A stretch of 64,000 bases of DNA, taken from positions 1,511 through 65,510 of the forward strand of contig CACYYO010000002.1 of assembly GCA_902778645.1 (NCBI GenBank). The letters run 5' to 3'. The position numbers were made by a program, and so were the translations under genes. Below, one piece after another: positions 13,736 through 39,463 of this stretch; positions within the stretch are counted from its first letter, which is position 1, and each line of letters begins with the position of its first letter. The stretch comes from an uncultured Rhodospirillales bacterium (GTDB lineage: Bacteria; Pseudomonadota; Alphaproteobacteria; RF32; CAG-239). The notes beneath the pieces are model-generated. The model ran no database searches. It was not told the DNA's origin and saw only the letters and a list, made by a program, of their open reading frames with translations.

Positions 13736-16174
13736 ATGAGTATCACAAAATTAAAAAGTTCAGAACTGTACCGTGTTTGCGATCCGAAAAAATTCGATTT
13801 CAGCAGTACCGCCGACTTGGAAGAAAGAATGTCCGCTCTTGGGCAAGATAGAGCCATCAGTGCGGTGGAATTAGGCATCAATATCAAATCAAAGGGCTAC
13901 AATTTATTCTGCTTAGGCCCTGAGGGAACAGGCAAAACCAGCCTTGTTAAAAGGATTCTCGAAAAAGAGGCAAAAGAGCGTCCCACCCCTGATGATTGGG
14001 CATATGTATACAATTTTGATGAACCCTATAAACCAAAGGCAATCAGTTTTCCTGCCGGAACGGCGACGGAATTTGCCAAAGACATTGATAAATTGATTGA
14101 TGAATTTTCAACCGCGATTCCGAGTATTTTAGAGAGTGAGGAATACAAAGCGGCAGAAAGCATCATTAAAGAGAAATTCAAGCAGAAAAAAGAAGAATAT
14201 ATTAAGATTCTGCAAAAGAAAGCAAAAGGCAAAAGTGTCTCGATTCTGCAAATGCAGGTTGGCTTGGTTGTTGCCCCGATGAAGAATGGTGAGGTCTTGT
14301 CTCCGGAAGCTTTTGATGAGTTGCCTGAAGATGAAAAGAAAGCACTGATTGATGATCTCAACGCCATGCAGCAGGAAATTGAAAATACGGCCAACGATAT
14401 GCCGTCATGGGAAGAAAAACAACGCGAAGAAACGAAGACATTGCGTGAGAAATTTATTAAGTTAACCGTCAAAAAACCGATTGATGATCTCAAAAAGAAG
14501 TACAAAGCAGATAAAGGCGCGGTTGACTTTTTGAAAAACGTGCAAAAACACATTATTGACAATATTGATGAGTTTGTCCCCTGTCAGGAACAGCAAAATC
14601 AGTCAGCCGGAGAAGATGACCCGTTGGGGATGCTTTTGAGCCGTATGAACAAACCGGACGAAGACAAATTTTCAAAGCTGAAAGTAAATGTCATTGTCAA
14701 AAACGAAAAAGACAGCGGTGCGCCGATAGTTATTCTTGACCACCCGACACAAAGCAATTTGGTCGGACGTGTTGAGCGTATCCAACAATTAGGCGCTTTG
14801 GTAACGGACTTTACCTTGATTAAGGCCGGTGCTTTGCATCGTGCAAATGGCGGATTCCTGCTCATGGATGCGCGTAAATTATTAGTTCAGCCCTATTCTT
14901 GGGATTCGCTAAAACGTGCCTTGTCATCCAAAAGTGTCAAAATTGATTCGCCGGCAGATGAAAGTACTTTTATGACAATTACGCTCGATCCGGAGCCGAT
15001 TCCTTTAGATGTAAAAATTATTTTAACCGGAGATGAAGAGCTTTTTGAATTACTGTCAGAGAAAGATCCTGATTTCCGTGATTACTTTAAGGTAGAGGCA
15101 GATTTCGGTATTTTAATGGATAGAACCGAAGAAAACGAACAAGAATATGCCAAACTTATCGGATCATTATCGAAGAAAAAACGGATTCGTTCACTTAACA
15201 AGCAGGCGGTGGCAAGAATTATCGAATATTCTTCACGCTTAGCGGAGGATTCGGAGAAACTTTCGGCCCATATTACATCGATTGGAGATTTGCTGCGCGA
15301 GGCTGACTATTGGGCACGCAAATCTAACTCTAAACAAATCGGTAAAAATCATATTGAGCAAGCAATCAATGAGCAGATTTACCGCTCCGGCCGCATTAAA
15401 GAGGCGATGCTTGAGCAAATTGATAAAGGCACGATAATGATTGATGTGACCGGCAAACGTGTTGGTCAAATCAATGGTCTGGTCGTCTACAATTTCTCCC
15501 AAAATTCATTTGGTAAGCCGTCTCGTATCACGACACAAGTTCGTATGGGTAAGGGCGAGTTTATTAATATTGAGAGAGAAATTGAGTTGAGCGGACCGAT
15601 TCACACCAAAGGTGTCTTAATCTTATCATCACTGTTGGCAAACAGATTTGCCAAAGAATCACCCCTGTCTTTGTCTGCATCAATCGTGTTTGAGCAATCT
15701 TATGGCGGGGTTGACGGGGACAGTGCCTCTTCAACGGAATACTATTGCCTATTATCGGCCATTTCAAATATTCCGATTAAGCAAAGTATTGCTGTGACCG
15801 GCTCGGTTAACCAGTTTGGAGAAATTCAGCCCATCGGCGGTGCGAATGAAAAGATCGAAGGATTCTTTGATGTTTGTAAGCACCGTGGCTTAACTGGTGA
15901 CCAAGGCGTCATTATTCCGAGAACCAACATCACCTCTCTAATGTTGCGGGAGGATATTCTCCAGGCCGTTGATGAGGGAAAATTCCATATTTATGCGGTT
16001 GATACGGTTGATGATGGTATTGAAATCTTGACCGGTATGCCGGCAGGCAAACCAAACGCCAAGGGTGATTACCCGCGCGGAACGGTTAATTATGAGGTCA
16101 AGAAAGGCTTAGAGCACTACTACAAACGCTATGCATACTATGCTCGTGACACTCATGGTTGCTTAGGGAAATAA
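13736..16174 (+). CDS. Lon-like ATP-dependent protease (AAA_32 + Lon_C architecture, COG1067 / YcbZ-LonB-like)
   Basis: Walker A motif GPEGTGKTSLVKRIL. The C-terminal Lon proteolytic domain has a Ser-Lys dyad context (..GVDGDSASSTEYYCLLSAISNIPIKQSIAVTGSVNQFGEIQPIGGANEKIEGFF..). Confidence 0.85.
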   Translation: MSITKLKSSELYRVCDPKKFDFSSTADLEERMSALGQDRAISAVELGINIKSKGYNLFCLGPEGTGKTSLVKRILEKEAKERPTPDDWAYVYNFDEPYKPKAISFPAGTATEFAKDIDKLIDEFSTAIPSILESEEYKAAESIIKEKFKQKKEEYIKILQKKAKGKSVSILQMQVGLVVAPMKNGEVLSPEAFDELPEDEKKALIDDLNAMQQEIENTANDMPSWEEKQREETKTLREKFIKLTVKKPIDDLKKKYKADKGAVDFLKNVQKHIIDNIDEFVPCQEQQNQSAGEDDPLGMLLSRMNKPDEDKFSKLKVNVIVKNEKDSGAPIVILDHPTQSNLVGRVERIQQLGALVTDFTLIKAGALHRANGGFLLMDARKLLVQPYSWDSLKRALSSKSVKIDSPADESTFMTITLDPEPIPLDVKIILTGDEELFELLSEKDPDFRDYFKVEADFGILMDRTEENEQEYAKLIGSLSKKKRIRSLNKQAVARIIEYSSRLAEDSEKLSAHITSIGDLLREADYWARKSNSKQIGKNHIEQAINEQIYRSGRIKEAMLEQIDKGTIMIDVTGKRVGQINGLVVYNFSQNSFGKPSRITTQVRMGKGEFINIEREIELSGPIHTKGVLILSSLLANRFAKESPLSLSASIVFEQSYGGVDGDSASSTEYYCLLSAISNIPIKQSIAVTGSVNQFGEIQPIGGANEKIEGFFDVCKHRGLTGDQGVIIPRTNITSLMLREDILQAVDEGKFHIYAVDTVDDGIEILTGMPAGKPNAKGDYPRGTVNYEVKKGLEHYYKRYAYYARDTHGCLGK

Positions 16175-16940: not shown

Positions 16941-17588
16941 ATGTACATTTGGATGATATTAGCGACTTTTATGGTGATGCTGGCGGCATATAATTTATCG
17001 CCACGTGCAGATATTGCACATGTCCAAAATGCCCCTCAGGCGGAGGCAGCAATCACCAGGTTTTTGGCTTGGCACAAAGGAGCGGAAAAATACGCCATAG
17101 CTTATAAAGGTGCTTTATCAGAATCAGAATCACTAGGATGTGCTGTGCTCAATGATTACCTGCCGATGGGCTACATCTGTGTGGATAACGAATCTTCCTC
17201 AACAATCTATTACTTAAACCCGGCAACAGGAGAATCTCCTGAAGAAGGTGTTCTTGGTAAATACTTTGTTGTTTCATACCAGCATGTTCCTGACAAATGG
17301 TTGAATGTTGCGACCAATAAAATTTTAGGTGATTTTTACCATGCATTAGCCAGTCGTGTTCCGGCGGGGGTAACTTGCGGGATAATGGTTGCGGAAAATG
17401 AAGAGTTTTTATCCAATTGCGAAGAAACCCCAAAAAAAGACCGCGATAATAAACTATGTAGCAATTACGTTGTTGAGGGGGCGACGGCGCTGGATAAATC
17501 CATTCCACCGAAAGCTATTAGTGATTTGGAAGATGAATGCACTGATTCAGACAAAGCTCCATGTATTGTTTGTGTAAAAAAGATCTGA
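16941..17588 (+). CDS. Hypothetical membrane-anchored Cys-containing protein, co-oriented with the downstream prepilin-like giant gene
   Basis: 215 aa with an N-terminal hydrophobic helix MYIWMILATFMVMLAAYNL. Its stop lies 14 nt before the next gene's start. Confidence 0.5.
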   Translation: MYIWMILATFMVMLAAYNLSPRADIAHVQNAPQAEAAITRFLAWHKGAEKYAIAYKGALSESESLGCAVLNDYLPMGYICVDNESSSTIYYLNPATGESPEEGVLGKYFVVSYQHVPDKWLNVATNKILGDFYHALASRVPAGVTCGIMVAENEEFLSNCEETPKKDRDNKLCSNYVVEGATALDKSIPPKAISDLEDECTDSDKAPCIVCVKKI

Positions 17589-17602
17589 TAGGAGGACGAG
17601 CC

Positions 17603-20600
17603 ATGAGGAAAATAAACAGCAAATCCGAATTAGGTAGTATGATGATTGAGGCGATAGCCATGCTGGGCTTGATTGCCATGGTCACCCCTGTCCTCTACAA
17701 AAAATCAGCGGAGCGAACCTCAGAGTTGCAGGATATCAACACTGCCGGAGAAATTCGTTCGATTATCAAGGCGGTTGATGACTACGTTGGCGCCAATTAT
17801 AACAAAATTGTCGGAAAAGGAGATGGAAACGAAGATCGGACAGTCACAACCGGATGTACCGGAAAGACGGAAATTAACGGAAGTGATGTGGAACATAACG
17901 AGATAACATATGATATGGGTGATGGTGATTATAAAGAGATTCCTCTGGGACACCTTTGTCAGTTTCTCCCTTATGGTGTCTTGGATGGGGAAAACCACGT
18001 AAGAGCCTCAAAGTTATTCTCAAACTACAAAATTGTCTTAAAACAGAAAGGAGAAGTAACAGAGGACGATCCTAAAGCCCGACCGGTTATAACCTCTTTT
18101 GTGGTGACCGATCCGTACAATGAATTACCGATTCTCCGTGCTTCAAGCATATCTTCTATGATTGGTGGTAATGGTGGTTATGTTACAGAAAAACCGGATA
18201 AAAGCCTTGAAATAAGCGGTAATATGGGCATATGGGGCGTCGATAAACCTCAAGAGGAGCTTGGTGTCGAGGTTAAAAAGCATGCAATTGTTGCCGCCTC
18301 TATAGAGGGAATTTCTTCCCAAACCGCCACAGTCGAGGCTGGTGAGGATGACAGTGATAACTTCTTATATCGTACACCTCAAGAGGATAAAGAGTTAAAT
18401 ACGATGAGCACGACTCTTTTCATGGGGAGCACGGGTGAGGGTGGTGAGCTCCACGATATCGTCAATATCAAAGGTTTAGCTGTCGGGGCTGAGGACACGG
18501 GCAACCACGCGCTTTATATCGCCGGCGGGGACATCCAGATTGGTAACGATGCCGCCGTAAATATCAGTGATAGCGGTGATATCACGGTGACGGGCAACAT
18601 TAAGGCTGACGGAACTTTAGACATAGGTGGTACCGCAACTTTCGGCTCGAATGATGAAATTACATTAGCTGATGGCGACGGTACATTTACTGGTGCTTTA
18701 TCAGCGCTAACCGGTGATTTTGGCGGTGCTGTCACCATCAATGCAGGTGAAGGAGAAGTTAAAAAAACCACCATCAACCAACCGCTGGAGGTGGTGTTCG
18801 AAGATCAAAACGGAACAAAATGTATTTCTGTGGGCGATAACGACTGTGCTCTTAAGGTAACCGGTGGAGCCTCTATCAGCGGCAACCTGCATGTCGGACA
18901 TATTTTCAACGCTGAAGATTTACATGCACGGAATACATTAACTGTCGGTGGAAACGCTGCAAATAAGGGAAAATATTTGAGAGTTGCAGAAGGCGAATTT
19001 AAATTTGGTAATTTAGGAGAGAATGAAACCGGTACACCCACCATCTCAGCCACCAACACAACCTTTGATGTCACAGCCTCCGGTAATGATGGTCATGCGA
19101 CCCTCACACATGGCAATAACAGCCTCAATGTCAACGCTTCCGGTGTCACCATGACCGGTGGTTCTGGGAGTGGCAGCGATGCAGTAAGCGCCACTATCAC
19201 TGCCAGTGCTGCAGGAAATGTCAGTATAAACTCTGACGCTGGCAAAACCATTAAAATGAACACCGATGACTTCGTCGTAACAAATACCACCGATGGTGGC
19301 ACGATTACATCTGACGTAAACAGTTTCAAAGTCCGCCCGACGAACACAACTGGCACGAGTACCAATGGTTATTTTGAAATCAAACATAATGGCACAGCGG
19401 ATGGTAATTATAATGAGCATATGGTTGTTGATAAAATGGACACTTATTTTACAGGAACAAATGCAGCTAAATCTAATGTCTACCTCCGCGATTCGGTCTT
19501 CAAACTGCAAAATAGCGACAACAATGACGTCGTTCGTATTGGGCAAACAGCAGATTCTAATGCGCAAATCGACATCTCCGGTGAAGGCGTAACTATGGCT
19601 GATGCCCCGAATGGCAATAAAGTCTTACGTGTTAATTTGTCTTCTTCTCTGGCTGCACATGATACTAGCTATCCCATCTATATCCGCAAAGGTGCCATTG
19701 AGATGACAGCAGGTGAAAATGAGCCGAGACCCTACATCCAAACTGAAAAACTTATTTCTACCAAAACGGTTCCTGATTTGCTGGATGATAATGGAGGGCA
19801 TTCTGGTGCGGGAATTCACTACGCTGTCGACCCGGCATATACATCCATCATGCATGATATCAAACTCACCACGCGTGGCGGTGCTCGCCTGAGCGATATT
19901 TTGCCTGATTTTATCAACAAAGGTATCTATGTCGTCGACAACACCGCCCCAGCCTTAGGAGTAGATTGCTCAATAGATGGGGAGACATCACACGGGAGAT
20001 GGCTCGACAACAAGAGCGATAGCAATCCAGGATATTTTAACATGTCTGTAGCAGATAAACTTGCCGTAATTCCTTGCGTAGCGGCGGATAAAAAAGTGAG
20101 CCCATGGGCGGGGTATGTTCCGATTCCAACGTGTCCGCACGGATATTCGGCGGTTATAACGGTCGGTTTAGCCAATGCCGCTATGGCACAGGGCGGTCAT
20201 CTAGCTCCAAAGACTAAGTGGGGAGGGAGTGGAAACACTCTTGAGGATTTAAAAGAAGCACCGGATAGTAACAGTGGCGCTTATAGCGGGTCAACCACAA
20301 GCCCCGAAGATATTGCTCCGGGGAATCCAGGGGCTCCGTACGCCCTGTATAATCAAAAGAATACATGGCTGAAATCAAGTATTCACTTATACCCGACAGC
20401 AGCAGAACCTCAGGGTTGGGATGTCTTGCTGGGATTTGTCTACCCATATGAATGGTATAAAAGCTTTATACCCCAAGCAGGAAGGAATCTTGATTATTTT
20501 GATTACCAAGGAGAAGATGACGTCTCTATCGGTTCAGAAACAGGATTTAATGATCAACTGATTTGGAATATGTTCCCGGTCTATACCAAAACCATTGAGA

Positions 20601-20848
20601 GTTACGCAACCGTTTATTGCTACTTTAACCGTAATGGTAGTCCGTGTAACTCATGGGATAAAGATGGCAATTGCACAGGGTATGATACGGGTCATCCTTA
20701 TTTCAATAGCTCTCTCGTTGATAAATACTATAACCAGCTGAAAAACTTCAGAGAGCGTCACTCAAAGACCGGCGGTGCGAACGATGGAGACAATCCGTAC
20801 ACAGGCCGTCTGAATAACGATGATGCTGATTTCAAAGGATACTGGTAA
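17603..20848 (+). CDS. Giant protein of about 1080 aa with a type IV prepilin-like (class III) signal, and large G/T/N/D-rich beta-repeat and Cys/aromatic C-terminal domains. Putative pilin-like adhesin.
   Basis: Strong SD (aggagg) and ATG at 17603. N-terminus MRKINSKSELG|SMMIEAIAMLGLIAMVTPVLY has a basic leader ending in Gly, Glu at +5 and a hydrophobic helix of about 20 aa. The ORF track start at 17561 is probably too far upstream. Confidence 0.6.
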   Translation: MRKINSKSELGSMMIEAIAMLGLIAMVTPVLYKKSAERTSELQDINTAGEIRSIIKAVDDYVGANYNKIVGKGDGNEDRTVTTGCTGKTEINGSDVEHNEITYDMGDGDYKEIPLGHLCQFLPYGVLDGENHVRASKLFSNYKIVLKQKGEVTEDDPKARPVITSFVVTDPYNELPILRASSISSMIGGNGGYVTEKPDKSLEISGNMGIWGVDKPQEELGVEVKKHAIVAASIEGISSQTATVEAGEDDSDNFLYRTPQEDKELNTMSTTLFMGSTGEGGELHDIVNIKGLAVGAEDTGNHALYIAGGDIQIGNDAAVNISDSGDITVTGNIKADGTLDIGGTATFGSNDEITLADGDGTFTGALSALTGDFGGAVTINAGEGEVKKTTINQPLEVVFEDQNGTKCISVGDNDCALKVTGGASISGNLHVGHIFNAEDLHARNTLTVGGNAANKGKYLRVAEGEFKFGNLGENETGTPTISATNTTFDVTASGNDGHATLTHGNNSLNVNASGVTMTGGSGSGSDAVSATITASAAGNVSINSDAGKTIKMNTDDFVVTNTTDGGTITSDVNSFKVRPTNTTGTSTNGYFEIKHNGTADGNYNEHMVVDKMDTYFTGTNAAKSNVYLRDSVFKLQNSDNNDVVRIGQTADSNAQIDISGEGVTMADAPNGNKVLRVNLSSSLAAHDTSYPIYIRKGAIEMTAGENEPRPYIQTEKLISTKTVPDLLDDNGGHSGAGIHYAVDPAYTSIMHDIKLTTRGGARLSDILPDFINKGIYVVDNTAPALGVDCSIDGETSHGRWLDNKSDSNPGYFNMSVADKLAVIPCVAADKKVSPWAGYVPIPTCPHGYSAVITVGLANAAMAQGGHLAPKTKWGGSGNTLEDLKEAPDSNSGAYSGSTTSPEDIAPGNPGAPYALYNQKNTWLKSSIHLYPTAAEPQGWDVLLGFVYPYEWYKSFIPQAGRNLDYFDYQGEDDVSIGSETGFNDQLIWNMFPVYTKTIESYATVYCYFNRNGSPCNSWDKDGNCTGYDTGHPYFNSSLVDKYYNQLKNFRERHSKTGGANDGDNPYTGRLNNDDADFKGYW

Positions 20849-27147: not shown

Positions 27148-27435
27148 ATGAAATTAATGTATACATACATAATAACCAATAAAAAGTATGGAACCTTATA
27201 TATAGGGGTAACAAATAACTTAAGGCGTCGAATATATGAACATAAACAAAAAATCGTAAAAGGGTTTAGTTCTCGCTACAATTTGAATAGGTTAGTATAT
27301 TATGAAATTTTCGAAGATGAAATCAATGCGATAGAAAGAGAAAAGCAATTAAAACTATTTAAAAGACAAAAGAAAATAGAACTAATAAACGACTTTAATA
27401 CTAACTGGGATGATTTGTATAATAATATCATTTAG
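27148..27435 (+). CDS. GIY-YIG nuclease family protein (UPF0213-like, small standalone)
   Basis: MKLMYTYIITNKKYGTLYIGVTNNLRRRIYEHKQK has the GIY-YIG core with conserved Arg and Glu. Confidence 0.8.
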   Translation: MKLMYTYIITNKKYGTLYIGVTNNLRRRIYEHKQKIVKGFSSRYNLNRLVYYEIFEDEINAIEREKQLKLFKRQKKIELINDFNTNWDDLYNNII

Positions 27436-28466: not shown

Positions 28467-28829
28467 CTAAAATTTAACCCGGGGGCCCTTTGAAGTATCA
28501 ATAGTATCAATACCAGTGCAACCACGCTCTTCATTCCAAGTCCCTCCTTGCTTTTTACACGATTCTTCTGTGTGGGCACGTGGAGTTTCAGAGTCAAGCC
28601 ATTCTTTATCATGTATCTGTTCCTCTACACTACTATAACATTTACAGTCATTGTTAACCCATGAACAGTGAGCTCCTTTTGAAACACAATCTTTTTTCGC
28701 CTGATCTTCCGCCTGCTTAGCTGCCCGCTTTGCGGCTGCTTCAGCCTCGAGTTGTTCCTTAGAGACGCAGACACCATTTCGTTTGACTTCTCCGGCAGCT
28801 TCATCACATCCGCTAGCCCCCATCTTCAT
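28467..28829 (-). pseudogene. Cys-rich 120-aa module. It is in frame with, and probably a detached C-terminal part of, the upstream giant VirB2-like gene.
   Basis: Same minus-strand frame as ORF 28977-32273. It is separated from that ORF by TAA (28977-79), 37 sense codons (EVQVQISSAAGSGSGAGSSQQGLSQTHIDCINVRQGK), TAG (28863-65) and 11 sense codons. Confidence 0.45.
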
Positions 28830-28976
28830 ATTGGTGCAATGTCCGGTAGCTTCGTCGCCGACCTATTTACCTTGGCGAACATTTATACAATCGATATGGG
28901 TTTGTGACAAACCTTGCTGAGAACTGCCTGCTCCGCTACCGGAACCCGCAGCAGACGATATCTGAACTTGAACTTC

Positions 28977-31900
28977 TTATTTCTTGCCTTCTTCCGTCTT
29001 TTTGGTATCAGTACATTTGCCTGAAATCTCATCAAATACGCCGCCCTGAGCAGCACACGCCTGTTGAGCAGCGGCACTTATCTGGTTTCTCTTGTTTTCA
29101 TTACTCTGGAAATCAAAATTGCCGGATGATTGTTGATACCTTGCTTCATCATACCCTTCGGTTACGCCAGTTAAAACTCCAAACAGAGTCCCCATGGCCT
29201 GTGCGCCATCACCCAATCCGAGCATACCACCCAAGCCTTCTCCTTCATTACGACCGGCCTCTGCCATAGCAGCGGTATTGCTGGCACCTGCAGCAGCCTC
29301 TGCTACCTTTTCCATACCGGTCAAAATCGTAGAACCGCCGCCTTTTCCGTCATTGTTCATCCAGTTATTAAAACCTGTTTGCTCGCTTTTAACCTGCTGC
29401 TCCAAATTTGCCAAAGCATTCTTTTCATTCTCGCTGCAAACCGAGGTCGAACATTTTTTCAGCAATTCTTCATATGTCTGGTTCAATACGCCGCGATATG
29501 CTTCTTGAGCCCTTGATGACCCCATATCTTGTACATTATTAGAAATTGCGCTGCCTGCTCCGGCCAAAATATTAGCCTCTACAGCCGTATTCCCGACCAT
29601 TGTTGCAAGAGCAGTTGTTGCATCTGTGACGTTAGAGAAGAAGTCACTGGCGCCGTCTTTTGCCGCCTTATAATTTGCTTCCGCCTGATCAACAACGGCT
29701 TGAGCGCTTTCCTCTCCGGATCTTGCATACGCCAAGTCACGCTCAGCCTGAGCAACCAGATTATCCCCTTCTCTTGTCGCCTGATCCAAAGCATACTGTG
29801 CTTGGTTTACCAGATTATCCCCTTCTCTTGTTGCCCGATCCAAAGCATATTGTGCTTGTGTGACTGCATTATTGGCATTATTATAATCAGCTTTTGCCGT
29901 ATTAAGTGCCTGATTGGCCTGAGATAAAAGATATTCGTCATCAGTAATATCTTTGCGCAGGTTTTCCATATCAGCACGAATCTCTTCTTCGGTTTTGTTG
30001 CCGTACTTGTTTGTGAGGTCCTGATATTCCTGACGATATTGTTTGGCATCCGCTTCTGCTTGCGCCATTTGCTCTTTAAGCTTGGCAATTTGCGCCGCCT
30101 CTGCCGGACGATTAGGGTCTAACTGATTAATTTGCTCTTGTAATCTGGCAACTTCATCATCTTTGGCTTTAGCTGCATCTAATAAATCATCTTTTTTGAG
30201 ATATTTATTCATATCTTCCAATTCTTTGGCGTGTTGAGCGCGTTGCGCTTGCAAGTTGTCAATATTTTCTTGGGCCTGATTAACAGCAGCCAATTTTTCT
30301 TCAGCCTCTTTCTTTGCAGCATCTAATTTATCTTGCTGTTCTTTGACAAGAGCATCTCTTTGTTTCTTCGCTTCATCAACACCTTTTTGTGCCTCATCAA
30401 TAAGATTATCTCTCTCTCTCTGTGCTGCGTCTAAAGCTGCCTGTTTTTCAGCAACATTGGCTTGCGCCTGATTCAAAATCTCGTTAGCTGTATTCAAATC
30501 CTGCTGTGCGGCACGGACGTAATCATTTGTGCCATTCCAAGCATCGCTAAATGCTTTCGCGGCGTCAATAGTGCCTTCCACGTAGTCTTTTACTGATTGA
30601 ACGCCCACAGCAGTATTACGAATAATGTTAAGACCATTCTTTATTGCATCAACGCCATCCATGAAGCTCCACCCTTTACCATCTGCCGCCGCTTTTAAGT
30701 CTGCCATATTAACATCCGGACATAAATTAGGGTTATTGCTGCATTCTTGAATCATTTGTTCCAATTCTTGCGGAGACATTGATGAGTAGGACGACGATCC
30801 GCCTGATCCGCTTGTAAAGTACTGCGCATGGTTACCATTAGGCAAGAAGTCTCCATATTGCAATGTAGACCCGTCATTATAAACGATTTCCTCAATCAAA
30901 GCGGTTGTCATAGAGAGAATAAATAGACCGATACCGATATTGGCCAACTGCTTAAAATTAATTTTACCGATAATTGCGCTATAAGCAAAGGCAATCATTC
31001 CGAAACCGGCTAAAATATAGACAATAGAACGTAAATCAGCGACAATAAGTGTAATTCGGCAAGCAAGGTATTGAAAGATACCAAACCCGCCACTTTGGGA
31101 CATATTGTCTTTAGCCTCTTTACACGTCGGCTTTGCCAGTGCGGCATTTACCTGTTTTTGAATATCAGTACTAGTTCCTGCTTTATCTCCATCTCCGATT
31201 CCTCCAGTAGAATCTGTATTTAAACCGTAGCCACAAGTTCCTTCTTCAATACAAGAATATTCACCGGAACGATTTAGAGCTTCTTGATAAGCTTTTGCTT
31301 CTGCCTGACATTCAGCAGACCCTTTTTCAAATTGACAATCATCATAAGCTTTTTTAGCCTGATCAAGTTTCTGCTGAGCTTGTCGTGCTTCTGCTGCTTT
31401 TGCCGCTGCCACACGATCTTCTCGAGCCTTTATAATACATTCTGAGATTGGTCCACCACATTTTTCAAAAGCAGCATGCTCTTCAGCTGTCGCATCAACA
31501 GAAAAAGTACAAGCTCTAAGAGTGGTACTATAAACCATTCCACCGGAACAAGAATTTTGGTTAACTTGTAAAGCCGTAGAATCAGCATTATTTTGCGCAG
31601 TTGCATTTTTATTATTAGCTTCAGTAGCCGCCTTTGCTTTTTTTCCGGCTTTTTTTGCTGCGTTTTGATAAGCATTATAAAGGTCCTTCAATCGAGAACA
31701 AACAGCATCATTCGGATTTTGTTTACAAGTTGCAATGGCGGCATCATATGCGGCCTCAGCTTCTTGTGCTGCTTTCTGTGCTGCCTCATTTTCTGCATTT
31801 GCTTTATCCGCTTTTTCTTGAGCGCTGTTAGCTTTTTTACTGGCTTTATCAGCATTACTATTGTCTTTTTTACATTGCGAAAGAGCAGATTTTGCATTAC

Positions 31901-32273
31901 GGAGCTGCGTTGCCATGCCTTCTTGACATTGCTTTAAAGCTGTTTGAGCGTTTGTTAAAGCGATACTCACATGCTTTGAAGCATCCATGCCACCGGAAGT
32001 ACATTTTTTATACTCCGCTTTAATGGTGTTATATACATCACAAACAGAATCCAACTTATCTTGAGCCGAAGTAACAGCTGCCTGTTGCGTTTGACAATTA
32101 CCATAAGCATTATAAGCAGAGACAGCACTCTGCGCATTTGCACAATTACCATAAGCCTCATCCCTGGTAATATCTTCAATATCAGTTTTCGCATTAGCTT
32201 CATTAACAGACAACAAAAATCCTAAGCACAGTAGGAATGAAACACCTCTCATCGCTTTATTAATCATTTTCAT
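28977..32273 (-). CDS. Giant secreted coiled-coil protein with an embedded VirB2/TrbC-like (T4SS pilin) double-TM hairpin
   Basis: Signal peptide MKMINKAMRGVSFLLCLGFLLSVNEANA. Cys-rich N-terminal domain and A/Q/K-rich coiled coils. The core LRSIVYILAGFGMIAFAYSAIIGKINFKQLANIGIGLFILSMTTALIEEIV aligns with the two small paralogs downstream. Internal duplicate NQAQYALD(R/Q)ATREGDNLV. Confidence 0.6.
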   Translation of the reverse strand: MKMINKAMRGVSFLLCLGFLLSVNEANAKTDIEDITRDEAYGNCANAQSAVSAYNAYGNCQTQQAAVTSAQDKLDSVCDVYNTIKAEYKKCTSGGMDASKHVSIALTNAQTALKQCQEGMATQLRNAKSALSQCKKDNSNADKASKKANSAQEKADKANAENEAAQKAAQEAEAAYDAAIATCKQNPNDAVCSRLKDLYNAYQNAAKKAGKKAKAATEANNKNATAQNNADSTALQVNQNSCSGGMVYSTTLRACTFSVDATAEEHAAFEKCGGPISECIIKAREDRVAAAKAAEARQAQQKLDQAKKAYDDCQFEKGSAECQAEAKAYQEALNRSGEYSCIEEGTCGYGLNTDSTGGIGDGDKAGTSTDIQKQVNAALAKPTCKEAKDNMSQSGGFGIFQYLACRITLIVADLRSIVYILAGFGMIAFAYSAIIGKINFKQLANIGIGLFILSMTTALIEEIVYNDGSTLQYGDFLPNGNHAQYFTSGSGGSSSYSSMSPQELEQMIQECSNNPNLCPDVNMADLKAAADGKGWSFMDGVDAIKNGLNIIRNTAVGVQSVKDYVEGTIDAAKAFSDAWNGTNDYVRAAQQDLNTANEILNQAQANVAEKQAALDAAQRERDNLIDEAQKGVDEAKKQRDALVKEQQDKLDAAKKEAEEKLAAVNQAQENIDNLQAQRAQHAKELEDMNKYLKKDDLLDAAKAKDDEVARLQEQINQLDPNRPAEAAQIAKLKEQMAQAEADAKQYRQEYQDLTNKYGNKTEEEIRADMENLRKDITDDEYLLSQANQALNTAKADYNNANNAVTQAQYALDRATREGDNLVNQAQYALDQATREGDNLVAQAERDLAYARSGEESAQAVVDQAEANYKAAKDGASDFFSNVTDATTALATMVGNTAVEANILAGAGSAISNNVQDMGSSRAQEAYRGVLNQTYEELLKKCSTSVCSENEKNALANLEQQVKSEQTGFNNWMNNDGKGGGSTILTGMEKVAEAAAGASNTAAMAEAGRNEGEGLGGMLGLGDGAQAMGTLFGVLTGVTEGYDEARYQQSSGNFDFQSNENKRNQISAAAQQACAAQGGVFDEISGKCTDTKKTEEGKK

Positions 32274-32350
32274 GGCACATCCTCCTAATAGTCCTTAGAA
32301 TTTTATATTAATAATTTCCCGTCTTTGTTCTTTTTTTTGCCCCTTTATAA

Positions 32351-32391
32351 TTCCTCCCCTTTTCAATAGGAGAGGGTCAGGAGGGGGTCTG
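32351..32391. promoter_or_regulatory. Family A palindromic element (ttcctccccttttcaataggagagggtcaggagggggt) in the promoter region of the giant VirB2-like gene
   Basis: Shares the CCTCCCCT-N-AGGGGAGG-N-GGAGGGG architecture with 16665-16706 and 33642-33685. Confidence 0.45.
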
Positions 32392-32403
32392 ATAACACCT
32401 TGT

Positions 32404-32925
32404 TTATCCGCCTGTCTTCAAGCTGTCGGTTATCATATCTGTCGTAATAACGGTATCCTCAACCATGTAGTTAATAATCGCCGCTGTTGCCGCAATTACA
32501 AACAACCCGATCAGAATAGCCGTCAACCATTTATAATTAATGTTTCCGAAAATGGAGCCGATAACCACCGCAATAATCCCAAAACCGGAAACCGCATAAA
32601 TAATCTCTCGCAAGCCGGTAAAGATTTTGCCGCCATGCGCCGCCAAATCACCAAATAAGGGACCCGAACTCCCACTCCCATGACCAAAATGAATAACGTT
32701 GGACATTCCTGAAGCAGCTGTTCCTACCACTTTTTTCGCTGCCTCCACAGCTTCAGGACTAGGATCTTCCGCCCACGAGTTCGTTGCAAATAAAATTGAA
32801 GAACACACAAACACCGCCAAGCTGGCAACAACCAATTTCTTAAAATTTATGTGCAACATTCTAAATATTTCCCTAAAAGAAACAAAAGGAAGGCGTTGTG
32901 AGCAATTTGTAAATAAATTTTTCAT
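32404..32925 (-). CDS. VirB2/TrbC-like T4SS pilin family protein (paralog 2, 173 aa)
   Basis: Signal peptide (LAVFVCSSILFATNSWA), then LREIIYAVSGFGIIAVVIGSIFGNINYKWLTAILIGLFVIAATAAIINYMV, two hydrophobic helices separated by a K/W loop. Confidence 0.6.
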   Translation of the reverse strand: MKNLFTNCSQRLPFVSFREIFRMLHINFKKLVVASLAVFVCSSILFATNSWAEDPSPEAVEAAKKVVGTAASGMSNVIHFGHGSGSSGPLFGDLAAHGGKIFTGLREIIYAVSGFGIIAVVIGSIFGNINYKWLTAILIGLFVIAATAAIINYMVEDTVITTDMITDSLKTGG

Positions 32926-32964
32926 AACAAACCTTCCTTTCTTTTTCAGTTAAATTAACATATA

Positions 32965-33327
32965 CTATTTTGTTGTACTGCTCTGGAAGGTATCACCCAT
33001 TGTACCTTCACCAGTACCGGCATAACCACTGGCACCTGTTGCGTATTCAACGATAGCACCGGCTGCCGCCAACAGGGCTAAACCGACTGCCAAGCCGGCA
33101 AACCATCCCCATTTAACCTTACCGATAATCGCTTGGTAAGCAATACCAACCAAACCGAAACCACCGATAACGAAGGTAATGGTTTTGACATGTTGGAACA
33201 CATTCATTGCTTTTCTCTCTGCAACCGTCATTAACGGTGAAGCTTGCGCAAAAGCATCAAGTGATACCAATGTCAAAACAAATGCCCAAGAGCAAATTGT
33301 CCAAATATTTTTTTTCAAGAAACGCAT
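32965..33327 (-). CDS. VirB2/TrbC-like T4SS pilin family protein (paralog 1, 120 aa)
   Basis: Signal peptide ending AFAQA, then ITFVIGGFGLVGIAYQAIIGKVKWGWFAGLAVGLALLAAAGAIVEYATG. Same architecture as Agrobacterium VirB2 (a GxFG helix, a K/W loop, a G-rich helix). Confidence 0.65.
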   Translation of the reverse strand: MRFLKKNIWTICSWAFVLTLVSLDAFAQASPLMTVAERKAMNVFQHVKTITFVIGGFGLVGIAYQAIIGKVKWGWFAGLAVGLALLAAAGAIVEYATGASGYAGTGEGTMGDTFQSSTTK

Positions 33328-33629
33328 AGTCTTTCTCCTTATCTAGTTATAAATTAATTTCATCTACCCTTTTAGAATACCTGATTTTTAAACATTTTCC
33401 AAGAAAAATCTGATAGCCCAAAAATGAAATAAGTTATTGAATTATCAACATAAATTTTCCTGTAACAAAAAATTCACAGTTGATAAACATCTACAAACAG
33501 TATTTTTATACACCCAAAATAGTAAATTTTTCTCTAACATTTTGAGCACCATATAACCCTTTACCTTGACCTTCGGAATCATCTGTAATAAATTACACGA
33601 TTATAAAGGCAAGAAAAGTGATGCCAACC

Positions 33630-35539: not shown

Positions 35540-38500
35540 CTATTGTATCTCTTTTACTTTCGTAAAGCGTTGATCTTGTGCCGCATTGCGCTTTGCAATA
35601 CCTCTTCTCTTTTCTGCCGCTTTTGTGGGCTCAAAGTTATAGTGTTCGGTGTCGTTTTGTAGTTCTTGAGCCGTCGGAAGTTTTTTCTTACCGCCGACAA
35701 AATCATTCATGTCGACGACAGCTTCCCGTTCGGCACTGTTCTTCTGTTCACGATTTGGCTGAGTAGCCTTAAACGTGCCATCGCTTACTAAACAGTGTTC
35801 TGCAAAGTTTGCAAAGTCTTCCGGCAATATGGTTTGCAAGAGGTTATGGCGAGAAATATTACTGCTCCATAATCCCTGACGAGCACTGGTGACAACATCA
35901 GATAATCCGCGAACATGCGCTTCCTGTGCAGATTCGTAATCGGCATCGAGCTTTAACTTTCCTTGTTTTCCACCTGATGTAAACGGAATCTTATCACTAT
36001 GCCCGGCAACGGCTTGGTCTATCATTTCTAACTGCCCTTTTAAATAATCCAACTTGGGCATATCCGGTGATGTAGACAGACGTCTTTCATCTAAGCGATT
36101 GCAGAAATGATTAAACAGTTTTTCTTTATTTTCATTTTCCGGTCCATAGATACAGACGAACAATTCCTTGCTGATAGTCATTTCTTCAGGTTCATTAAGA
36201 TTTTCTAAGGCTAAAGCCGGCTTCTTTTCCGGGAGAGTAATTTTATCCTTACCTGTAAGTTCATCAACTGCTTGATGAAATACGGAAGAATAATCAGGCT
36301 TGTTGACTGTTGTATTTGGTGTTTGGTACTCTTTTTTCTTCTTAAGCCTTTTCATAATCTCTTTAGCTTCTTCCGGAGTTGGTAAATATCCGGCAATCGG
36401 CTCTAAATTTTCGAGCTGCTTCGGCTCTTTCTGCTTAACCGGCTGTTTTGGCTTAGCTTCTTCGGCTTCTTGTTGTCTCCTCTTGGCCAATACTTCTTCT
36501 GTTTCCAAGAGCGCAACCGGCTGTTCTGGCTCTTTCGGCTTAACCGGCTGTTTTGGCTCTTTCGGCTTAACAGGCTGCGTCTGATCTACCGGCGTTTTAT
36601 CCACCGGTGTCTTGTCCACCGGTGTCTGATCTTCTTTTTCATTCTTCTTGGCATTCGCTCCAACACGTTCTGCCAAAGCACGATTTTCTCTCTGATTATC
36701 ATGAACCATGGTGAAAGGCAGAATATCTACACCCTCTTCGGTATGCTGGGTTATCCGCTGATACAGTTCTTCTTGCCCCGGATGATCGTGCGGTTCATAA
36801 CCGACATCAGCATCTTTATTATAAGAATCAGGATTCTTTCCATCACCCAAGCTGTCAAAATCCTTAATTTTACCCATATCATTAACGTCGCCCTCATGCT
36901 GTCCACCAACATGATTCTCGACAATTTGCAGAACTTGAGCATCTGCTTCAGTCAGGGGTTCTCCGCTAAGAAGTTTATGGTATGTATCTTGATAAGTTGT
37001 TGTATGACCGTTTTCGTCCGTATAGCTCAAGACTTCCCCAATCGGCTGACCGTTATCGGCAAGAGCATCAGCATTTGGTGCTAAAATATTTGCCTGGTAA
37101 AGTTTGTAAAGAAGCATGTCGCTGTTAGAAACAAACGCACCATTGACATAGCTGTTCATTTCATGGTGTGTTTCAGCCAACTTATCTAAAGAAGCAACAG
37201 CATCATTATATGCCGAGGTATTCTCATTATAAGATTTATCCGTCCAGTCATGACCTAAATACTCACTGTAGCGTGTTCCGCCGGTATGAGGATCATTGGG
37301 GTCTAATACTTGCTCCATACGATGCTTGGCAAAATCAAGTTCTTCAGCGGTATAATCACGCGTTGTAAACCCGTCTTTACCTTCTTGAACAAGAAAAGCA
37401 CCTTCATCAGTTTTATCACAATATTCTAAGGTATAACCCTGTTTTGTCAGTTCTTCTTCGGGCAAAGCTCGCAAGTTATCAAATTCACTTCTGTCTGTAA
37501 CAACACTGTCATGAGATGTTGTCCCCAACCCTGTGGCTTGCATACCAAGCCCGAGAGCATAACTGGTTCCCAGAGCTGTTCCGGTTGATAATGTAGCAGA
37601 AAAAGCAGCTACAGAAGCTGATTTCCACCAGCTTTCGCCTTTTTCTCTTTGACGGCGGAAGGTTTTAACAATGTTCGTCAGATTACCGACAGCCATTGCA
37701 CCAAATCCCAAACCTTTCGCTGCATCTTTGGCCGCAGCACCACCCAGCAGAGCGGCACCAGTTGCTAGTGCAGAAGTGGCAATTTCACCAACATGGTCTT
37801 TTAAGAATCCTTTTAAAGTAAGTTTACGATTATTTTTCTTCGCTTCTTCTTTGAGGCGCTTATACTTTGTTGATAAACGGAAAATTGCCTGCCCGCCGAC
37901 ATAAGCACCATAAGCAATATTACCAAAGGGAATAAGGCTTGATCCGTAACGGACAAGTTGGTTCAGCGCTTGTCTGCCCATATTATGCTTCATAGCTTTT
38001 ATTTGTGTTTTAGCAATCGTATAATAAGGATCAAAACGTTTAATGGCGGTATTATCAAAGCCTCTAATGCTTTCTGCCATATTCCCGACTGCATTTGTCT
38101 TCTTACCGATTTTCGTTCCCAAACGATTCAAATAGCCGAATGCATCATTCGTATAGCGAGCAAAGTTTGCAACTTGTACCTTATTATCTACCTTATAGTT
38201 TCCACCGGTACCATTAATAACGGCATCATAAGCGGCTTGCCCGGCAGCTTTAGCCTGTTGCTCACTCATCGGTTGCGGAATATAAGAAGGATTAGCCTGC
38301 CTTTTTTGTTCTTCCTGAGCCAAATGTTTAGCAGCCTCGTTAGCTGTCAACATTGCTGTTAATTCAGCGGCATAAGCTATATTAATCTCTTCTTGAATGG
38401 CGGCATCTAATTCTTCACCCTTTTTGCCCTTGTTTTTAACAGCCGCATTCATCGTTGCTTTTTTGATAACAGCCTCATTAAAGGAGTTGATGAAGTTGTC

Positions 38501-39463
38501 ACGTTGCGTATTATCTACAAATTCAATATTATCCCAAACCTGAGCCAAATCTTCCGGCGGATTTTTGATTTTTCTTTCAGCCTCATTTTCTTTAGCGAGT
38601 TCTTCGTTGACTCGTTTTTGAGCTCTCAAATACGTTTCGTTAATTTCATAGGCATCATCATGTGTTAAGCCCGTAAAACCATTAGCGTCATCATAAATAT
38701 TGATTTCTATTTCAAGTTTTTCACGACAGATTTCGATATTTTGCTTCAAGGCGTCATCATCAGGATTCTTTTCCTCAACATAATCATACATTAACCTTGC
38801 GCCGTCATAAACATCGGCAATATTTGTCTGGTCAACAGTGGTTTCACTATTGGCATATTTGTTTACCTTAGAAACCATGACCTCCATTAATGCCGCCCTT
38901 GAAGCCTGCATTTCTGCTTTGATGGCATCAGTGCTGGCATGATTTTCAGCTTCCTCCAACCATCGAGAGGTATCAACCAAACGTCTCGGCGGATAATATT
39001 CAAGAATCTCCTGTTTCAGGGCTTTATCTCTTTGGTTGAAATCATTTCGCTCATCTGCATTTAAGTTGGCTTTTGCCAAATTAATGGCATCTTGTTGAGC
39101 ATCATGATCTAAAGAAGCAAAATTTTCCGGCAGTTTATTCATTTGCGCTAAAATAGCACGGTCAATACCTACACGAATTGGAGCCCCGGAATTTAAGAAA
39201 TCAGTATTCTCGCCGCTGATAAGCTGCTGCCATTCATCAGAAGTAAAGTTAGTTTCAATGCGCTGAGAGTCATTTTGGTTTTGATTCTCGTTTTCACGCT
39301 CCCTTTTGGCGCGTTCTTCGGCAATCATTTGTGCCCTGAATTCATTTTTATTTTGTGCTGCTTCATAGGCGGCGCTATCTTCTCTTGAGGCAGTATTACC
39401 TGTATATTTTTCATTAAACCATGCTTCTAATGCATCATTAGTTATATCAGCCATTGCCGTCAC
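35540..39463 (-). CDS. Giant hypothetical protein of 1307 aa, effector-like: acidic coiled-coil N-terminus, central hydrophobic segments, tandem PVDKT / PVKPKEP repeats and a basic C-terminus
   Basis: No signal peptide (MTAMADITNDALEAWF...). Repeats QTPVDKTPVDKTPVDQTQPVKPKEPKQPVKPKEPEQPV. C-terminal tail KAAEKRRGIAKRNAAQDQRFTKVKEIQ. Confidence 0.6.
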   Translation of the reverse strand: MTAMADITNDALEAWFNEKYTGNTASREDSAAYEAAQNKNEFRAQMIAEERAKRERENENQNQNDSQRIETNFTSDEWQQLISGENTDFLNSGAPIRVGIDRAILAQMNKLPENFASLDHDAQQDAINLAKANLNADERNDFNQRDKALKQEILEYYPPRRLVDTSRWLEEAENHASTDAIKAEMQASRAALMEVMVSKVNKYANSETTVDQTNIADVYDGARLMYDYVEEKNPDDDALKQNIEICREKLEIEINIYDDANGFTGLTHDDAYEINETYLRAQKRVNEELAKENEAERKIKNPPEDLAQVWDNIEFVDNTQRDNFINSFNEAVIKKATMNAAVKNKGKKGEELDAAIQEEINIAYAAELTAMLTANEAAKHLAQEEQKRQANPSYIPQPMSEQQAKAAGQAAYDAVINGTGGNYKVDNKVQVANFARYTNDAFGYLNRLGTKIGKKTNAVGNMAESIRGFDNTAIKRFDPYYTIAKTQIKAMKHNMGRQALNQLVRYGSSLIPFGNIAYGAYVGGQAIFRLSTKYKRLKEEAKKNNRKLTLKGFLKDHVGEIATSALATGAALLGGAAAKDAAKGLGFGAMAVGNLTNIVKTFRRQREKGESWWKSASVAAFSATLSTGTALGTSYALGLGMQATGLGTTSHDSVVTDRSEFDNLRALPEEELTKQGYTLEYCDKTDEGAFLVQEGKDGFTTRDYTAEELDFAKHRMEQVLDPNDPHTGGTRYSEYLGHDWTDKSYNENTSAYNDAVASLDKLAETHHEMNSYVNGAFVSNSDMLLYKLYQANILAPNADALADNGQPIGEVLSYTDENGHTTTYQDTYHKLLSGEPLTEADAQVLQIVENHVGGQHEGDVNDMGKIKDFDSLGDGKNPDSYNKDADVGYEPHDHPGQEELYQRITQHTEEGVDILPFTMVHDNQRENRALAERVGANAKKNEKEDQTPVDKTPVDKTPVDQTQPVKPKEPKQPVKPKEPEQPVALLETEEVLAKRRQQEAEEAKPKQPVKQKEPKQLENLEPIAGYLPTPEEAKEIMKRLKKKKEYQTPNTTVNKPDYSSVFHQAVDELTGKDKITLPEKKPALALENLNEPEEMTISKELFVCIYGPENENKEKLFNHFCNRLDERRLSTSPDMPKLDYLKGQLEMIDQAVAGHSDKIPFTSGGKQGKLKLDADYESAQEAHVRGLSDVVTSARQGLWSSNISRHNLLQTILPEDFANFAEHCLVSDGTFKATQPNREQKNSAEREAVVDMNDFVGGKKKLPTAQELQNDTEHYNFEPTKAAEKRRGIAKRNAAQDQRFTKVKEIQ

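Follow-up and report, generated by a model that had tools for sequence, protein, structure and literature searches.

The subject of this study was a stretch of 64,000 nucleotides (nt), here called the window, from an uncultured Rhodospirillales bacterium (contig CACYYO010000002.1 of assembly GCA_902778645.1, positions 1,511 to 65,510 of the forward strand), and specifically three consecutive genes on its minus strand. These encode proteins of 120, 173 and 1098 amino acids (aa), referred to as pilin A, pilin B and G, and all three carry a core homologous to the VirB2/TrbC pilins of type IV secretion systems (T4SSs). The best reading of the trio is that of an ancient, triplicated virB2 array belonging to a divergent, chromosomal VirB4-type system in uncultured gut Alphaproteobacteria. 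The chances are about even that the giant protein G is a specialised minor VirB2 pilin, displaying variable appendages outside the cell. This reading draws on the constraint on the hairpin, the hypervariability of the Cys-rich flanks, an unchanging place in a virB2-virB3-virB4 operon, and the switching of tips seen in one relative.

A VirB2/TrbC core in three adjacent genes

The original prediction held that the three genes share a homologous core, and this was borne out both by BLASTP (A versus B, E = 4e-10; A versus G, 3e-11, over G residues 414-461; B versus G, 2e-13) and by hhalign, in which the profile of the G core matched the small-pilin profile of pilin A with a probability of 99.1% (E = 1.7e-18, 68 columns). 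The hhalign match ran from the pre-membrane helix through the GFG helix and the AI(I/F)GK loop to the second helix. A loop motif, AY(Q/S)AIIGK, had been quoted for all three proteins, and this does not hold for pilin B, the loop of which reads VIGSIFGNIN. The loops GKVKW and GKINFK, as read from the sequence, are short and positively charged.

Assignment to the VirB2/TrbC family, which had been proposed as a check, was upheld for pilin A, which scored 37.7 bits on PF04956 against a gathering cut-off of 27.9. Pilin B of the window gave no PF04956 match at E ≤ 1, and no Pfam match of any kind when searched alone, while the core of G scored 16.6 bits (E = 0.0092), below the threshold. The A and B orthologs of relative L004 (GCA_037071395.1, the sole complete genome among the relatives, the loci of which carry L numbers here) scored 46.6 and 29.0 bits, respectively. 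Across the G family, all 21 of the cores tested matched PF04956 at E ≤ 1 (best E, 3.2e-6), and it was by far the most frequently matched family. On these sequence comparisons, the homology of the core to VirB2/TrbC is near certain, as are the family-level facts described below.

The predicted architecture of a signal peptide followed by a two-helix hydrophobic hairpin was also recovered. A Kyte-Doolittle scan found an N-terminal, signal-like segment and a central two-helix hairpin in G and in 83 of 83 homologs, and AlphaFold2 (AF2) modelled pilin A as helices at residues 8-25, 31-68 and 73-97 (mean predicted local distance difference test score (pLDDT) 74; about 85 in the hairpin). For G, a helical hairpin was predicted centrally, as had been anticipated (residues 398-434 and 440-464), at low confidence (pLDDT 40-50). 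Pilin A is of the small, single-domain size expected of the family (mature length ~70-120 aa), and the 1098-aa G is not.

All three N-termini are Sec-type signal peptides with A-x-A sites, as read from the sequence. A type IV pilus pilin, of the type II secretion system (T2SS)-like kind, was considered for each of them and rejected, as none has a prepilin leader.

Anatomy of the giant protein

The coordinates of the trio, of the parts of G, and of two associated features are collected in Table 1. A hydrophobic N-terminal segment is common to the G family. The N-domain of the window protein contains 17 Cys, and conserved pairs of Cys flank the hairpin. It had been described as a Cys-rich coiled-coil domain; Cys-rich and helical it is, but coiled coil is confined to residues ~585-875. 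Beyond the hairpin, the window protein carries the motifs DG..LQYGDFLPNGNH, C511-x6-C518-P-D and WS..D..IKN, and the conserved C-terminal modules of the family as a whole read DG..L.YG.YLP.GNH, C-x6-CPD, WS..DLKN.IKS, WLNN..GGG.TIL and LGD.LGA.

Table 1. Positions of the pilin trio, of the domains of G, and of associated features in the window
Feature	Position	Strand	Description
Pilin A, 120 aa	32965-33327	minus	Canonical small TrbC/VirB2-family pilin; signal peptide ending AFA before Q, helix, two-helix hairpin
Pilin B, 173 aa	32404-32925	minus	Second VirB2 paralog; extension between signal peptide and core
G, 1098 aa	28977-32273, TAA stop included	minus	Giant VirB2-domain protein
G residues 1-28	32190-32273	minus	Sec-type signal peptide read from sequence (ending VNEANA before KT); neither lipobox nor prepilin leader
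G residues 29-395	31089-32189	minus	Cys-rich helical N-terminal ectodomain; long helices predicted by AF2, pLDDT ~90
G residues 396-466	30876-31088	minus	VirB2-like core: amphipathic helix, first transmembrane (TM) helix with GFG, basic loop GKINFKQ, second TM helix
G residues 467-584	30522-30875	minus	Family-specific post-hairpin modules; nearly invariant alignment columns; low AF2 confidence
G residues 585-875	29649-30521	minus	Antiparallel coiled-coil stalk predicted by AF2, pLDDT ~95
G residues 876-1098	28980-29648	minus	Conserved Gly-rich C-terminal modules ending in Cys-loop (CAAQGGVFDEISGKC); conserved columns G980, G1011, G1024, G1028
In-frame remnant of ancestral G 3' end	28467-28976	minus	Behind stops TAA (28977-28979) and TAG (28863-28865)
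Candidate operon promoter	33600-33627	minus	TTGGCA-16 nt-TATAAT, ~270 nt upstream of pilin A

The stalk was modelled as two helices of ~110 residues each (584-692 and 762-875), about 16 nm in length, with two shorter helices between them (694-717 and 723-757). It contains an 18-aa tandem repeat, corresponding to a direct repeat at 29732-29839. At only 7% coverage, this coiled coil of ~290 residues is absent from most G homologs, and it is a lineage-specific insertion between the conserved C-terminal modules. An SMC-like coiled-coil domain of ~630 aa had been proposed for the whole region C-terminal to the hairpin. This was not sustained, since coiled coil occupies only ~585-875 and the SMC matches are coiled-coil noise. 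An SMC/Rad50-type protein was likewise rejected as an identity for G, the TIGR02168 match reaching 29.9 bits against a cut-off of 567 and covering residues 585-858 only. Foldseek searches returned only generic coiled-coil arms, none at E ≤ 0.001.

At the C-terminus, AF2 predicted a beta-hairpin at residues 1078-1089 (pLDDT ~80). The tails of G proteins repeatedly carry a Cys-loop motif, C-x3-[GNS]-G-x-[WFY]-x(4-8)-C. It was found in none of 1124 other open reading frames (ORFs) of the loci, except for the window ORF at 28467-28829 and an identical copy in L001. Separately, residues 1015-1038 (29160-29231) form a Gly-rich, moderately hydrophobic segment, GGMLGLGDGAQAMGTLFGVLTGVT, in which the glycines are nearly invariant family-wide; it could be a glycine-zipper-like, membrane-interacting element.

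Distribution and uneven conservation of the family

A genome scan found 167 relatives, of which 80 loci were kept. Almost all of these are metagenome-assembled genomes (MAGs) of uncultured Alphaproteobacteria from the guts of animals and humans, with a few MAGs labelled otherwise, and the names they bear include 'Azospirillum sp.', CAG:495 and Candidatus Scatocola. In a large protein collection, 83 homologs of G (620-1533 aa) were detected, none with a Pfam domain; most are nameless, and the few that are named are all 'hypothetical protein'. When 1.84 billion representative proteins were searched exhaustively with a profile, only 681 matched at E ≤ 0.001, and about 40 of the best 150 were longer than 500 aa. 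The arrangement had been presumed to be undescribed. No description of it was found, but it is a conserved family of many gut Alphaproteobacteria rather than a singular fusion.

The gene order A-B-G was invariant in the 68 loci with three matches. The A proteins are ~113 aa long, the B proteins 110-281 aa, and the G proteins 178-1752 aa (median ~800). Members of one group were much more alike (62%, 57% and 44% identity for A, B and G, respectively) than members of different groups (~26%), so the triplication is ancient and has given three fixed orthologous groups. The flanks of the G core range from 2 to 654 aa before it and from 41 to 1179 aa after it.

A distinctive pattern of constraint and turnover was seen along G. 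Mean identity of 42 homologs to the window protein was 71.5% in the hairpin, 22% in the N-domain, 29% in the post-hairpin region and 28% in the C-tail. The same pattern was seen against the closest homolog, that of L085, which has the same synteny, when ratios of nonsynonymous to synonymous substitution (dN/dS) were calculated by the Nei-Gojobori method. The hairpin was 97% identical at the aa level (dN/dS 0.07), and the C-terminal parts ~79% identical (dN/dS 0.15-0.19), while the N-domain (31089-32189) was 34% identical, with a dN of 0.74 and a dN/dS of 0.46. The divergence of the N-domain indicates a probable allelic module replacement or diversifying change, and the constraint on the hairpin is unlike that of a mere membrane anchor.

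Two irregularities of the family were also recorded. Some relatives of 180-830 aa from the representative search (P0085-P0092) carry 2-6 separate pilin-core matches (P0087, of 399 aa, has 6), and could be either tandem pilin-domain fusions or gene-calling read-throughs. In L062 (5350-9115), G seems to be broken into two overlapping ORFs in different frames, of 373 and 928 aa, through a frameshift that is either genuine or an artefact of sequencing.

Linkage to a VirB4-type system

In 59 of 85 loci, the start of a virB4 gene (PF03135, 810 aa) lies ~400-500 nt beyond G, and the interval holds a gene for a 96-aa protein with two TM segments, in the position of virB3. After virB4, the relatives carry several secreted coiled-coil proteins and a secreted protein of ~220 aa. 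No Pfam family was matched by the genes after virB4 or by the 96-aa gene. A protein search found 1179 near-identical VirB4s of this clade (82-90% identity), in sharp contrast to the variability of G, and none of them could be assigned to the window genome itself.

The trio of the window is separated from any such operon. It had been noted that the window has no VirB3-B11 genes, and this proved correct: there was no Pfam match to these families in any window ORF of at least 150 aa, and no window ORF of at least 60 aa clustered with the VirB3-position or VirB4 families of the relatives. The whole sub-lineage is similar in this respect, as no virB4 was found in the 3-10 kb of downstream sequence examined for the window, L002/L006, L005, L007-L010 and L085. 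The neighbours of the trio in the window, L002/L006, L007, L008 and L085 are instead a porin gene and a gene for an OmpR-type regulator, and dnaA is nearby in the window and in L002.

Further observations were made on the loci of relatives. The coiled-coil proteins encoded after virB4 (for example, L016:14741-16546 and L069:16794-18176) are secreted and of 460-640 aa, with mature N-termini such as QWPTLDISSVK and IIPTIDPTSIAN; they are multi-copy within a locus, with 132 members in 56 loci. These N-termini may resemble the N-terminal motif of VirB5/TrbJ, although Pfam gave no match, and the labels VirB5-like and VirB3-like are tentative ones taken only from gene position and likeness of motifs. 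Upstream of the trio, in about 50 loci (for example, L004:1-8701, minus strand), a divergent cluster lies back-to-back with the VirB2-VirB4 operon. It encodes a 570-aa unknown protein, a TcpQ-like protein, a secretin, a PilO-like protein (PF06864), a 503-aa unknown protein and an ATPase of the T2SSE family, a gene order that resembles that of the R64/PAPI-1 type IVb thin-pilus genes.

Tip switching by DNA inversion in a relative

In L004 (11359-14325), a 996-nt inverted repeat was found, the arms of which are 100% identical and separated by 975 nt. One arm falls within G, at its 3' end, and its partner within an opposite-strand ORF that has no promoter, so that inversion would swap the last 123 aa of G for an unrelated tail of 137 aa with two Cys-loops. 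Both forms of the tail exist as full-length proteins in public assemblies, one of the 908-aa type and the other of the 916-924-aa type, and the partial copy occurs on dozens of contigs. The 10 kb of flanking sequence showed no recombinase gene. The window has no such inversion cassette, only short repeats.

Truncation of the window copy of G

The G gene of the window is followed, in the same frame, by a fourth ORF, of 120 codons, at 28467-28829, which falls within the coordinates first given for the trio. It has neither a Shine-Dalgarno sequence nor a signal peptide but bears the G-specific Cys-loop. Reading through both intervening stops gave an alignment to residues 1106-1221 of a 1351-aa homolog, P0002, with 67% identity (E = 4e-35), and the TAG at 28863-28865 is TGG (Trp) in L085. 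Because of the common frame, this alignment and the shared Cys-loop, the ORF is the cut-off end of G. A separate gene or a silent cassette was rejected in favour of an in-frame remnant, and so was an alternative genetic code, as TAA, TAG and TGA all terminate well-supported genes here. The two stops are reproduced identically in a Logan assembly. In this genome, then, G has lost its last ~170 residues to two nonsense codons. The 47 codons downstream of the stops show a dN/dS of 0.11 against the homolog, so that either the truncation happened recently or translation of the tail continues in some way.

Possible role of G and competing explanations

Within the array, pilin A is read as the ordinary major pilin and pilin B as a second one. 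If G is a specialised minor pilin, the following picture would apply. The hairpin of G would insert in the inner membrane with its loop toward the cytoplasm, and the protein would then be handled by the assembly machinery of A and B and packed into the pilin lattice, so that its two large flanks would both come to lie outside the cytoplasm, on the exterior of the fibre. One flank would be a disulfide-rich, helical N-domain; the other would be a C-terminal domain, having in the window lineage a ~16-nm coiled-coil stalk and a Cys-loop tip. Both would act there as variable appendages of an adhesive or antigenic kind, and the likeliest places for G would be the tip of the pilus or a few scattered sites. 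Several features of G are of the kind expected outside the cytoplasm, namely the Sec signal peptide, the abundance of Cys in the N-domain and the Cys pairs around the hairpin. In the solved F- and T-pili, as reported by Costa et al. in 2016, both ends of the pilin point outwards and its loop is turned towards the lumen, a geometry compatible with flanks of G lying outside the fibre. The hypervariable ectodomains, together with the inversion switch, point to an organelle of host or neighbour contact. A bolder version, in which proteins of the G type are themselves structural subunits of a T4SS pilus, with giant, disulfide-stabilised adhesin stalks on both termini and with tips and N-domains exchanged by inversion or recombination to vary host or partner binding, is advanced more tentatively.

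Several points weigh against a minor pilin. Appendages of 370 and 630 residues on each subunit are hard to fit into a helical pilin lattice or an outer-membrane channel, and for this reason G could be only a minor or terminal subunit. The role of a VirB5 at the tip might already be filled by the long secreted coiled-coil protein encoded after virB4 in relatives. The AF2 model of G has a predicted template modelling score (pTM) of only 0.36, with its hairpin at the low pLDDT already given. No pilin was found when the PDB was searched by sequence, using either pilin A or the profiles of pilin A and of the G core, and structure searches with the pilin A model returned only generic helical hairpins; the former are considered uninformative because these pilins are too divergent, and the latter because the fold is too simple. 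The window copy of G, being cut short by two stops and having no T4SS ATPase nearby, could also be decaying.

The difficulty of packing such flanks into a pilus is one argument for a second, less probable explanation. Here, G would stay in the inner membrane, its hairpin docking to the T4SS inner-membrane complex or to the pool of pilins, and its ectodomains would act as a periplasmic scaffold, spacer or assembly regulator. The antiparallel helices of the stalk, ~110 residues and ~16 nm long, are of a length to span the periplasm. Other components of the machine have diverged in this clade beyond what Pfam recognises, which makes it plausible that there are structural subunits of an unusual kind. 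However, the coiled coil is missing from most family members, and the flanks vary widely both in length (2-654 and 41-1179 aa) and in sequence. This variation, like the swapping of a tip by DNA inversion in one relative, is a pattern typical of exposed, selected surfaces.

It is unlikely that G of this genome is a decaying relic without current function, left behind when the trio was separated from its machine. Such a fate would account for the two in-frame stops, which remove ~170 codons that are intact in the closest homolog, and for the lack of virB3 or virB4 within 29-30 kb on either side of the trio. Against this, the remaining ORF of 1098 codons is still open and has a good ribosome-binding site, the dN/dS values against L085 remain low (0.07 in the hairpin and 0.15-0.19 in the C-domain), and pilins A and B are intact. 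Moreover, the unlinked arrangement beside the porin and regulator genes is conserved in L002/L006, L007, L008 and L085, all of which have an intact G.

The known VirB2/TrbC pilins, such as RP4 TrbC and Agrobacterium VirB2, mature by cleavage at both the N- and C-terminal ends, and G might in the same way be a pro-pilin from which proteases remove both flanks, releasing a small pilin, with the flanks acting as chaperone-like or export pro-domains. This is very improbable given that two ordinary pilins are already encoded next door and no protease gene is linked; conserved flank modules, disulfide motifs and an inversion-controlled tip cassette would also be pointless in pieces that are discarded. 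Finally, convergence of a generic hydrophobic hairpin on a VirB2-like form, suggested by the sub-threshold Pfam score of the window G core (16.6 bits), the lack of a match to solved pilins and the non-specific fold searches, is essentially refuted by the composition-corrected BLAST and hhalign values (3e-11 and 1.7e-18), by the shared GFG and AI(I/F)GK motifs, and by the placement of G, which always immediately follows two genuine TrbC genes and, in most loci, precedes virB4.

A VirB5/TrbJ pilus-tip protein was considered as a separate identity for G and rejected, there being no match to a VirB5-family Pfam profile.

Other features of the window

Each of the three pilin-family genes is preceded by a Shine-Dalgarno-like sequence. 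The promoter-like site at 33600-33627 matches the consensus at 11 of 12 positions, the best in the region, but as the number of such matches there is not above shuffled expectation it is regarded as a candidate only. Next to the regulator and porin genes that flank the trio, a 1307-aa protein without a family match is encoded at 35540-39463 (minus strand). Its centre is hydrophobic and rich in Gly and Ala, it has PK-rich repeats, and L085 has a syntenic counterpart of 1328 aa. On the other side, an otherwise classic dnaX-ybaB-recR cluster is interrupted between ybaB and recR by a 95-aa ORF with a GIY-YIG domain (27148-27435, plus strand), and the same insertion was found in L001 and L085.

Short intergenic direct repeats, of 60-78 nt and ~90% identity, occur at 26928-27004/33682-33758, 20966-21024/28130-28189 and 20859-20922/20971-21034, and one pair brackets the segment from the GIY-YIG ORF and recR through pilin A. 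They may be elements similar to repetitive extragenic palindromes (REP) or miniature inverted-repeat transposable elements (MITE). Further away, at 16941-20848 (plus strand), two overlapping ORFs of 215 and 1095 aa without a Pfam match lie downstream of a gene for a LonB/LonC-like protease (13736-16174).

Comparison with known systems

VirB2 pilins are usually viewed as tiny subunits, tightly packed with lipid, with VirB5 or other, distinct adhesins taking care of adhesion. Neither literature searches nor a 2025 review of T4SSs yielded an account of a VirB2 module within a large protein, and searches for literature on the T4SS of this clade, or on fusions and extensions of VirB2, returned nothing relevant. 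If the minor-pilin reading is correct, a conserved family with the pilin hairpin housed in secreted proteins of 350-1750 residues would alter this view, as T4SS fibres would be decorated via the pilin itself, much as type IV pili are via large minor pilins. On the bolder version of that reading, G-type proteins would be the first pilin-adhesin fusions in the superfamily of conjugative and T4SS pili. As the hairpin alone is strongly constrained, G also offers a handle on how pilins are recognised by the assembly machinery. The interest of the finding is tempered by the purely computational nature of the evidence and by the truncation of the window copy. The family belongs to a T4SS that is encoded on the chromosome and conserved by vertical descent in gut Alphaproteobacteria, which are widespread in humans and animals and known here only from MAGs.

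Among the closest known counterparts are VirB2 of the Agrobacterium Ti plasmid and TrbC of RP4 (PF04956). The signal peptide, amphipathic helix, two hydrophobic helices and short basic loop are all shared with them, as is the position of the trio, in relatives, at the head of a virB3-virB4 operon, and pilin A passes the family threshold. Known members, however, are precursors of ~100-150 aa without extra domains, whereas G adds ~370 residues before the hairpin and ~630 after it.

Tandem arrays of small VirB2 paralogs are present in the rvh system of Anaplasmataceae, in Bartonella, as the TrwL copies of the Trw system, and in Patescibacteria, which have six VirB2-like pilins (PMC12857230, PMC7789307). 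Like the trio, these consist of several divergent pilin genes in a row, and they are thought to diversify the exposed fibre. They differ in that all of their pilins are small, while the present array consists of three ancient, fixed orthologous groups of different architectures, one of them giant.

Two further comparisons concern the enlargement of a T4SS subunit and the role proposed for G. In the extended VirB6 proteins of Rickettsiales, a core membrane subunit is enlarged by big hydrophilic domains, the role of which is unknown (PMC12857230). They resemble G as enlarged core subunits of Alphaproteobacteria with scattered T4SS genes, but belong to another subunit family, with five or more TM helices. 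The tip adhesin VirB5/TraC corresponds to the proposed job of G, being a helical, secreted T4SS protein at the pilus tip that mediates contact. There is no sequence relationship between the two, VirB5 has no membrane hairpin, and no VirB5 Pfam match was found in these loci.

A functional parallel to the exchange of tips comes from the PilV minor pilin of IncI plasmids, a component of a type IV pilus in which the C-terminal adhesin tip is exchanged by shufflon DNA inversion (PMC9045228). The cassette that the 996-nt inverted repeat forms at the 3' end of the L004 G gene is analogous to this. PilV, however, belongs to an unrelated pilin superfamily, with a prepilin leader and T2SS-like machinery, and its shufflon is a multi-segment one with a dedicated recombinase, Rci, whereas L004 has one long, perfect repeat with no recombinase seen nearby, and the window is without a switch.

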